Origin: Pseudomonadota bacterium
GTDB taxonomy: Bacteria > Pseudomonadota > Alphaproteobacteria > Rhodobacterales > Rhodobacteraceae
Direction of reading: 5' to 3'
Length of the DNA stretch: 64,000 nucleotides
Assembly (NCBI GenBank): GCA_039026375.1
Contig: JBCCML010000005.1
Location: forward strand, 66,906 to 130,905
The stretch's first letter is position 1; each line of letters opens with the position of its first letter. Below are positions 62,007 through 64,000 of the stretch, in pieces. Under the pieces are notes generated by a model. It was not told where the DNA came from. It did no database searches and saw only the letters and a list, made by a program, of their open reading frames with translations. The position numbers were made by a program, and so were the translations under genes.

Positions 62007-62534
62007 TCAGCCCTGAGCGCGATCAATCGCGTCGGTAATCATCTTCTTCGCGTGGTTGGCATCCGCCCAATTCTGGACCTTGACCCACTTGCCGGGTTCC
62101 AGATCCTTGTAGTGCTCGAAGAAGTGGTTGATCTGCTGGCGTGTAATTTCCGGCAGATCCGCAAAGTCGTGGATGTTCTCGTGACGGCGGGTGATCTTGT
62201 TAGACGGCACCGCGACAACCTTCTCGTCCTGGCCCTTCTCGTCTTCCATGACCAGAACGCCAACTGGGCGACAGGAGATCACGCAGCCCGGTACCAAAGG
62301 CCGGGTGTTCGCCACCAGCACGTCGATCGGATCACCGTCATCCGACAGGGTGTGCGGGACAAAACCATAGTTCCCTGGATAGCGCATCGGCGTGTAGAGG
62401 AAGCGATCGACGAATAACGTGCCCGAGTCCTTGTCCAGCTCGTACTTGATCGGTTCGCCGCCAATCGGCACCTCGATGATGACATTGATATCTTCGGGTG
62501 GGTTCTTGCCGATCGGGATTGCTTCGATGCGCAT
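62007..62534 (-). CDS. ppa: Inorganic pyrophosphatase (family I)
   Basis: [51 protein letters not shown]. Confidence 0.98.
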
Positions 62535-62672
62535 GGGGCGTCTCCTGTGGTGTTTCTTGAGCGCGCTCTTACTGTGCCGACGCCCATGTTGCAACGCACA
62601 ATAAACGTGCTTTCGTGACAGATCTCGACCGCTTTGCCATAGTCGCTGCAGGGATTGGTTAATGGGGCGGGG

Positions 62673-64000
62673 ATGTCCGACGGGCGCGTCTTCATCAGTT
62701 ACAGGCGTGGGGTAGACAGTGCGTTCGCAGGACGTCTGCATGATCGGTTGGAGCGGCACTTTTCGCGCGACCAGCTTTTCATGGATGTCGACTCGATCCC
62801 GTTGAGTCGCGATTTCGTCGACCATCTGGATGAGCAGGTGGGCAAATGCAGCGTCTTCCTGGCGATAATTGGTCCCGGCTGGTTAGACGCGCGCGGTAGG
62901 CTGGAAGACCCGGACGATTTCGTGCGGATCGAGATTGAATGCGCGTTGCGCAGGCCAGACATCCCGATCATTCCTGTCTTTGTTGAAGACGTTGTGCTGC
63001 CCGAAAGCGATAACTTGCCCGCAAGTTTGGCGCCCCTGACCCGGCGCAACGGCATCGTCGTCTCACATCACAGTTTTGCAGCCGTAGTGGATAACAAGCT
63101 GACCACCGCGTTGACTGCATTGATGCCAGCTGGAGCCAGTGCGGGGCAGCGGGACGCCGTCCGCTCGGACGACGGATTGGACCTGGAGGCGCTGGTTGAA
63201 AGATCTGATGGCACGGCAGCGTCTTTGCCGTCTGCCTTCGAAAGCACAACGGCTGAACTACCCGGGCGCCAAGCCACGCCAGCAACCCCTGCCAACACGC
63301 AGGACACACCGGCCCGACCTGGCAACCAACGAAAGGGATTGATCGCCGCTGTGGCTGTGTGCGGACTAATCGCCCTCGGCGTGGGCGCCTTTCTAGCCCT
63401 TCCTTTAACGAAACCAGCGCTTGATGACCCTATCGAAGCAGATCAAAGCGCACAGGACCTCGTAAGACTTGCGCTGAACGGCGGGGATGCTGTTGCAGGA
63501 CGCGCCGCATACCGTGCCTGTGTCGGATGCCACAACGCCTGGATGCCCCAGCAGGGCGTTGGCCCAAACCTGGTCGGCATCGTTGGGCGACAGATTGCGT
63601 CGATCCCGCAGCTTTTCCGATATTCTGATGCAATGCTGGCGTTGGAGGGCGTCTGGACGCCCGAAGCGCTGAATGCCTACCTCGCCAATCCGAAGGAGTG
63701 GTTGCCCGGCACCCGCATGCTTTACCGTGGCATGCCTGACCCGGTTGACCGCGCGAATCTGATCGCATTTCTTGCGACAACCGGCGTGGTGCCAGGATCT
63801 GATGCCGAGGCATTGGATGAACCAGTTTCTGGCGAGCCCGTTCAGGTGGTTCTGGGGTTTAAGGTCATCGAAGAGGAGGCGCGCGCCGAATGGGCACGTC
63901 TGCGCAAGGCCCTGGCCATTCAGCTTCGTGACAAGGTTGGTCGCATCGTCCAAACCCGCTGGGGCTACAGCGTCCGGGCCGAACCATTTCCGAACGAAAA
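62673..64000 (+). CDS. TIR - transmembrane - cytochrome c - SPOR-like fusion protein (3' end outside window)
   Basis: Hand-translated, open for 442 codons to the window end: VFISYRR...FMDVD...[11 protein letters not shown] (TIR); [21 protein letters not shown] (TM); CVGCH, GPNL.GI.GR, YSDAM, PGTRM (class I cytochrome c); ARAEWARL...YSVRAEPF (SPOR-like). Confidence 0.88.

Follow-up and report, generated by a model that had tools for sequence, protein, structure and literature searches.

The window analysed here is a stretch of 64,000 nucleotides from an alphaproteobacterial draft genome in 106 contigs (G000, C5:66906-130905). At its right-hand end lies a gene, referred to below by the name of its protein product, P0002, in which one reading frame joins a TIR domain, a single transmembrane (TM) helix, a class I cytochrome c domain and a SPOR-like domain (Table 1). 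Frame 1 stays open from position 62673 to the end of the window, over 442 codons, just as an earlier reading of the same DNA (hereafter the sequence-only reading) had reported. In the parent contig, the open reading frame (ORF) continues for 23 further codons, to 465 in all, and its stop is located 70 nt downstream of the window. Retrieval of the downstream sequence, a check which that reading had proposed, thus yields a complete gene that stands as a single-gene unit. Since the ORF track of the window holds closed frames and the stop lies beyond the window end, the gene is missing from that track.

Table 1. Features of the P0002 gene and its surroundings, in window coordinates (residue numbers refer to P0002; AF2, AlphaFold2; pLDDT, predicted local distance difference test)
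Feature	Position	Strand	Basis or remark
P0002 coding sequence (TIR-TM-cytochrome c-SPOR, 465 aa)	62673..64000	+	codons 1-442 in window
Cytoplasmic SARM1-like TIR, residues 1-150	62673..63122	+	Pfam TIR_2, SARM1 match, AF2
Codon of E87, putative catalytic Glu	62931..62933	+	alignment to SARM1 WVHKE Glu
Ala/Pro/Thr-rich cytoplasmic linker, residues 151-221, ending in basic QRK	63123..63335	+	AF2 pLDDT <50, composition
Single TM helix, about residues 222-245	63336..63407	+	Kyte-Doolittle, AF2
Class I cytochrome c domain, residues 265-370, c552/cy type, predicted periplasmic	63465..63782	+	phmmer, NCBIfam, AF2
Haem attachment motif C283-V-G-C-H287	63519..63533	+	aligned to CxxCH of c552
Codon of M349, distal haem ligand in PGTRM	63717..63719	+	aligned to GTKM of c552
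C-terminal SPOR-like domain, residues 387-463; last 23 residues of protein past window	63831..64000	+	Pfam, hhalign, AF2, Foldseek
Sigma-70-like promoter candidate, GTGACA / 17 nt spacer / CATAGT with TG	62615..62643	+	consensus match only
ppa, soluble inorganic pyrophosphatase, divergent neighbour	62007..62534	-	edge of variable slot; Pfam Pyrophosphatase in orthologous locus

An accessory gene between hppA and ppa

A fusion of this kind in a draft genome calls for a look at its integrity. The 90% cluster of P0002 contains a second member, P0314, which was found both on a 149.9-kb contig of another metagenome-assembled genome (MAG) and in a public run as assembled separately by Logan. P0314 is 95% identical to P0002 over all 465 residues with 0 gaps, and its gene context is the same (desaturase-TPR-Zip-ppa, then the gene itself, then hppA). 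The two genes differ by 65 synonymous and 24 non-synonymous substitutions (89 in all) at a dS of 0.21, and no indels separate them. The resulting dN/dS is 0.11, both overall and for TIR alone; it rises to 0.19 in the cytochrome c domain and falls to 0.05 in SPOR. All domains of P0002 are under purifying selection. The catalytic and cofactor residues are all unchanged between the two proteins. With an orthologue in the same context in two other assemblies and a dN/dS of 0.11, both misassembly and neutral decay are therefore very unlikely.

The sequence-only reading had itself raised the prospect of a misassembly or frameshift that joins separate genes. Apart from the draft state of the genome, little in the data invites it: the full-length ORF recurs gap-free in two independent assemblies, the G+C content at third codon positions (GC3) is uniform across domains and junctions, and TIR-TM-cytochrome c and TIR-TM-SPOR proteins exist independently. 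We regard an assembly artefact as next to impossible. Judged from its sequence, P0002 is a real, expressed-looking single-gene unit.

The ATG start is supported by the N-termini of homologues, which read MSDGR(I/V)FISYRR, close homologues starting with MSDGRIFISYRR. The annotated orthologue at L132:6001-7422 has 473 aa, 8 codons more than with the start backed by these N-termini, which is probably a difference in start-site annotation. The promoter candidate listed in Table 1 lies about 30 nt 5' of the start codon, the intergenic region upstream of the gene is 98% conserved in the orthologous locus, and a GC-rich hairpin is found between the stop and hppA. With ppa divergent upstream and hppA convergent downstream, the gene is alone between two pyrophosphatase genes and looks monocistronic.

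Comparison of the slot loci (L122-L131) shows that the content of the hppA-ppa gap varies in this genus. Of ten relatives examined, six (G013, G010, G002, G016, G001 and G008) have hppA and ppa adjacent in tandem, and no gene was detected between them. G015 and G014 possess a more divergent hppA (41-42% identity), and ppa is on the opposite strand in G014. In the remaining cases the gap is occupied, each time on the opposite strand: by the P0002-type gene in G000 and a sister MAG, by a gene for a TIR-FGE-sulfatase protein of 432 aa in G006, the TIR of which is 54% identical to that of P0002, and by a T4 gp19-like tail-tube gene in G005 (Pfam, 115 bits). In G000 (about G000:C5 129440-131060) the slot includes window positions 62535-62672 and continues past the right-hand end of the window. 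The insert measures roughly 1.5 kb and has neither direct nor inverted repeats at its termini. From these sequence comparisons we conclude that P0002 is encoded by an accessory insertion, located in a variable slot that hppA and ppa delimit.

A motif conserved across the genus is also present upstream of ppa, at window positions 62555-62610 (L002 2461-2516) and in L122, L124, L126, L127 and L129. It reads TTGCAACGCACAAT, or ATTGTGCGTTGCAA on the ppa strand, persists beside the insertion and may be an operator or part of a promoter.

The distribution of the gene is narrow. No full-length relative with TIR, cytochrome c and SPOR appeared in a search of 5.8 billion proteins, nor among the best 150 matches of a search of 1.84 billion representatives. 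The gene is absent from 24 same-genus genomes, and a scan of one genome per species retrieved 80 TIR relatives, none with a cytochrome. As far as these searches reach, the three-domain combination appears to be restricted to one species-level lineage. Such a distribution, in a slot that accumulates unrelated insertions, might induce one to see in P0002 a recent, neutral product of domain shuffling with no function. However, the low dN/dS, the lack of indels, the intact cofactor and catalytic residues and the recurrence of similar fusions elsewhere all speak against it, and we consider such a neutral origin and fate very improbable.

Parts of the P0002 protein

The N-terminal part of P0002 matches Pfam TIR_2 over residues 6-111 with 46 bits (cut-off 28). 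Its nearest solved relatives by sequence are SARM1 TIR chains, which align to residues 5-140 (136 residues) with an E-value of 1.2e-8. The FISYRR motif is the same in P0002 and SARM1, a D-V-(D/E) motif is common to both, and DFVRIE(87)IECAL of P0002 aligns over DWVHKEIVTAL of SARM1. E87 thereby falls on the Glu of WVHKE, which we take to be the catalytic E642 of SARM1. This Glu is invariant in all 78 family members from named genomes, as well as in four TIR-cytochrome fusions. An AF2 model gives residues 1-150 a pLDDT of about 90, with five strands alternating with helices in a flavodoxin-like pattern. The TIR domain with E87 at the catalytic position, postulated in the sequence-only reading, is hence well founded: it belongs to a SARM1-like clade and is predicted to cleave NAD, its catalytic Glu and FISYRR pocket motif being intact. 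P0002 differs from SARM1, AbTir and ThsB-type TIRs in that its TIR is N-terminal and cytoplasmic within a membrane protein that has its remaining domains in the periplasm; the ARM/SAM domains of SARM1 are missing from it.

We also considered whether P0002 is a Thoeris ThsB and rejected this identity: its neighbours are ppa and hppA, with no ThsA-like partner adjacent. NCBIfam ThcB4 gives 29 bits against a cut-off of 220, and matches of ThsB models to the TIR cover only about 70 residues (PADLOC ThsB1: 70), far below cut-offs.

The TIR domain is followed by a linker of about 70 residues, predicted to be disordered, and by one hydrophobic segment. The Kyte-Doolittle maximum of 2.63 is reached at residues 223-241, no other segment exceeds 1.6, and AF2 predicts a helix at 224-240. 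The N-side flank has a charge of +2 and the C-side flank one of -3, a positive-inside distribution from which an N-in/C-out topology follows. P0002 is thus predicted to be a bitopic inner-membrane protein, and in this regard the linker, the QRK, the single helix and the orientation given by the sequence-only reading all hold.

Beyond the membrane helix lies the cytochrome c domain. A phmmer search of the PDB matched residues 267-369 to P. denitrificans c552 (3m97, E 7e-22) and to Rhodobacter cytochrome cy (6xkw, E 8e-20). The CxxCH and PGT(R/K)M motifs are in register with c552 and cytochrome cy, c552 reading GTKM, which bears out the class I cytochrome c with C283-V-G-C-H287 and M349 recognized earlier by eye. 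In the four TIR-cytochrome fusions, C283, C286, H287 and M349 are as invariant as E87. The NCBIfam Cyt550 domain matches with an E-value of 9e-13; Pfam Cytochrom_C stays below its cut-off of 21.3, the full protein scoring 14.4 bits and the isolated domain 19.0. The pLDDT of the domain in the AF2 model is 72-93. The genome encodes CcmE (101.6 bits), and attachment of haem to P0002 is therefore feasible. Altogether, the alignments identify a mono-haem class I domain derived from the membrane-anchored c552/cy family, with a predicted periplasmic location. A canonical membrane-anchored cytochrome c is encoded elsewhere in the genome (G000:C6:103599-103940, minus strand). It has an N-terminal anchor, CKACH and GTSM, and shares 39% identity with the cytochrome part of P0002.

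The statement of the sequence-only reading that it was aware of no TIR fusion carrying a c-type haem can no longer be maintained: a handful of them were found in metagenomes. P0196, P0171 and P0263, together with the P0263 cluster, are TIR-TM-cytochrome c proteins. P0190 and P0262 (L015:7001-8596) have the order TIR-TM-cytochrome c1-cytochrome c (Pfam Cytochrom_C1, 131 bits), and their cytochrome c1 represents a second kind of respiratory haem module on TIR. These uncharacterised metagenomic proteins, like others in which TIR and a TM helix precede a further module, resemble P0002 in their TIR clade (40-65% identity), in the order of parts and in being stand-alone genes; unlike P0002, none joins cytochrome c with SPOR.

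On the best TIR trees, the cytochrome fusions need three label changes, and a single clade is not rejected (approximately unbiased test, AU p 0.49). The cytochrome tree lacks resolution. Thus, the trees cannot tell one origin of TIR-cytochrome fusions from several. Four of the six TIR-fused cytochromes (P0002, P0171, P0196 and P0263) are on long branches of 0.84-1.22 against a median of 0.37, while the P0190/P0262 cytochrome pair has short ones. The long-branch domains still keep CxxCH and the Met; such a pattern in the sequences suggests an altered constraint on the cytochrome domain after fusion. Free cytochromes cy match the cytochrome of P0002 at up to 54% identity and 101 bits, better than the other fused domains do (41-70 bits).

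One may then ask whether P0002 is mainly a respiratory electron carrier, with its cy/c552-type cytochrome working between bc1 and a terminal oxidase, SPOR as a tether and TIR as a regulatory or scaffold appendage. Besides the high identity to cy/c552, with strong E-values and all hallmark residues kept, the layout of TM anchor, linker and class I cytochrome c facing the periplasm is that of c552 and cytochrome cy, and P0190/P0262 fuse TIR to cytochrome c1, a respiratory subunit. However, P0002 departs from c552 and cy in placing 220 cytoplasmic residues (TIR and linker) before the anchor and SPOR after the cytochrome. Its linker between helix and cytochrome is short (about 20 residues), its cytochrome domain has a long branch, and a separate canonical copy exists in the genome. 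The gene is accessory and, being absent from the 24 genomes of the genus, is not part of core respiration. A C-terminus tied to the wall would impede shuttling, and it is hard to see what a conserved catalytic TIR would do in electron transfer. A mainly respiratory role is thus, in our opinion, unlikely.

The C-terminus of P0002 required more sensitive comparison. Pfam SPOR (PF05036) stays below its cut-off of 21, the isolated domain scoring 18.6 bits and the full protein 14.3; when the SPOR model was run against all six frames of the genome, the domain was found at 17.7 bits (E 0.0175). hhalign against 16 SPOR domains of related genomes, each above the Pfam cut-off, gave 94%, an E-value of 1.4e-7 and 77 columns, and BLASTP aligned the domain to the SPOR of P0011 (E 0.003). 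When the SPORs of two TIR-TM-SPOR homologues were aligned with it, AF2 modelled the C-terminus as beta-alpha-beta-beta-alpha-beta with a pLDDT of 82. For this model, the only Foldseek match at E <=0.001 was the CwlC SPOR (1x60, E 3.8e-4, TM-scores 0.59/0.66), the SPOR domains of RlpA and FtsN (6i09 and 1uta) also being among the matches. A phmmer search of the PDB with the C-terminus gave no match, and a word-indexed search with residues 376-465 recovered only P0002 itself. The domain contains a Y-x-V-R-x-x-P-F strand and a C-terminal Cys pair. It appears to be a divergent SPOR-fold domain in which one defining residue, a Gln discussed below, is not in its place. The C-terminal SPOR announced by the sequence-only reading is supported by hhalign and, for the model built with SPOR homologues, by the Foldseek match to CwlC, albeit below the Pfam cut-off.

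P0002 shares with FtsN, DamX and DedD the N-in orientation, one TM helix and a C-terminal SPOR; the cytoplasmic part of those proteins is a short divisome-binding peptide, whereas that of P0002 is an enzyme-type domain. By analogy, P0002 might be a structural or division accessory of the wall or septum, its TIR being a non-enzymatic association domain. Apart from the topology, with its periplasmic linker, this idea gains from the TIR-TM-SPOR proteins P0011 and P0012, which are without a cytochrome, and from the fact that TIR domains are association modules in animals. It sits poorly with the catalytic Glu and FISYRR pocket motif that are invariant across the family, as these would be unexpected in a pure scaffold, and with the closest solved relative, the SARM1 TIR, being an active NAD-cleaving enzyme (NADase). 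The gene is moreover accessory and not conserved in the genus, and the key glycan-binding Gln is out of register. We therefore think a division accessory improbable.

A family with interchangeable outer modules

The TIR clade to which P0002 belongs includes members from Alphaproteobacteria, Actinomycetota, Chloroflexota, Bacteroidota and Cyanobacteria. Of the 80 family members, 47 (59%) show a single hydrophobic segment downstream of TIR, and the median length of their outer tails is 265 aa; several such segments occur in nine members and none in 24. The partner domains are diverse, comprising WD40, uracil-DNA glycosylase (UDG), PD40/TolB-like, glycerophosphodiester phosphodiesterase (GDPD), FGE-sulfatase, TPR/Sel1, SPOR, IalB, TRAP-type solute-binding protein (TRAP-SBP) and OmpR-type DNA-binding domains. 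Overall, these architectures describe a large, uncharacterised family, recognized by sequence, whose members combine a constant N-terminal TIR with interchangeable outer modules, the link usually being one TM helix.

Two partners are frequent enough to be mentioned separately. In 10 of 78 members TIR is paired with a UDG-superfamily domain, and in 7 of 78 with a GDPD domain; members paired in these ways include L045, L067, L068, L072, L073, L079, L087, L088 and L093 from Chloroflexota. We would also like to comment on P0007, a metagenomic protein of 286 aa. Its TIR, 62% identical to that of P0002, is fused to an OmpR-type winged helix (Trans_reg_C, 35.5 bits) and occupies the usual place of the receiver domain.

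A possible transmembrane TIR receptor

Taken together, the topology and the parts of P0002 induce us to propose that it may be a receptor-type protein whose outer domains gate the cytoplasmic TIR, a proposal to which we would give about an even chance. In such a receptor, the periplasmic modules would be the input and TIR the output. SPOR would tether P0002 to the glycan strands of the wall, and the haem domain would serve to monitor redox state, a ligand of the haem or a docking partner. Lateral clustering of P0002 would then respond to changes outside the cytoplasm. TIR NADases, both SARM1 and bacterial ones, are active only when self-associated. Since their active site forms only through self-association, clustering would activate the cleavage of NAD+, leading to NAD+ depletion or to a signalling nucleotide. 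By analogy with these enzymes, lateral clustering by outer domains would be the simplest way to regulate a bitopic TIR protein.

Haem as a periplasmic input has a precedent: the Geobacter chemoreceptors GSU0582 and GSU0935 are transmembrane signalling proteins whose periplasmic input domain binds c-type haem covalently (PMC3460858, PMC8396549). Their sensor domains have a PAS-like fold with CxxCH and a chemotaxis output, whereas P0002 joins a class I cytochrome c fold to TIR. They are the nearest functional analogy for a haem-c periplasmic input (PMC3460858). As to the role that such a receptor would play, defence or abortive infection, surveillance of envelope damage and redox signalling are undecided alternatives.

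Several observations weigh against a gated TIR receptor. Class I cytochromes with His/Met ligation are normally electron carriers with little redox-linked conformational change. The pairing of TIR with a DNA-binding domain or with cytosolic repeats in some members could mean that this TIR is a generic association module and not an enzyme. The NADase and receptor functions of P0002 and its family are themselves predictions. Gene context is equally unhelpful to the proposal: no ThsA-like or other effector is adjacent to the P0002 gene, the neighbourhoods of P0262, P0011 and P0316 have nothing in common, and defence genes are not enriched, with PADLOC matches at 1e-10 for 4 of 134 neighbour ORFs of 34 members. 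Likewise, no Pfam family recurs among the neighbours of family members beyond chance-like counts. A literature search returned no description of bacterial TIR-TM-periplasmic proteins, nor of TIR combined with SPOR or with a cytochrome.

The wall-binding part of the proposal meets difficulties of its own. Without SPOR homologues, a full-length AF2 run models the C-terminus of P0002 as low-confidence helices, and the confident fold appears only with them. In SPOR domains, the Gln of strand beta1 (FtsN Q251, RlpA Q270) contacts the MurNAc lactyl group of denuded glycan (PMC6895207). The hhalign alignment puts this near-invariant column on V393 of P0002, with Q391 two residues upstream on the same strand, and glycan binding by P0002 may thus be weak or altered. 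The sequence-only reading had envisaged a Toll-like one-component receptor at the septum that couples periplasmic redox state or wall damage, such as entry of a phage or predator, to the TIR output. Of its septal SPOR, the domain stands, and septal targeting has become less certain with the replacement of the glycan-contacting Gln by Val (PMC6895207). The redox or wall-damage function finds no support in gene context, in view of the missing ThsA-like partner and the lack of defence enrichment.

Bacterial TIR domains are familiar from immune systems which sense what happens within the cell and in which they act as cytoplasmic enzymes. In P0002 and its family, TIR is wired via one membrane helix to domains that are workable only outside the cytoplasm. 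If these outer domains do control TIR, they would provide a direct route from the redox or ligand state of periplasmic haem, or from the structure of the wall, to NAD+ metabolism or nucleotide signalling, as well as a simple bacterial model of receptor-type TIR activation. P0002 is small, is encoded by a single gene and offers clear point-mutant controls (E87, C283/C286/H287 and M349), so the receptor idea is directly testable.

It is tempting to extend the idea of a TIR receptor from P0002 to the whole family. Its members would then be transmembrane TIR receptors in which swappable extracytoplasmic modules (c-type haem, SPOR, beta-propellers and C-type-lectin/FGE domains) gate a SARM1-type NADase by clustering; in P0002, the haem would let the respiratory or oxidative state outside control NAD+ cleavage. 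This generalization is possible but tentative, and we hold it with considerable doubt. If true, the family would represent a prokaryotic counterpart of Toll-like receptor logic.

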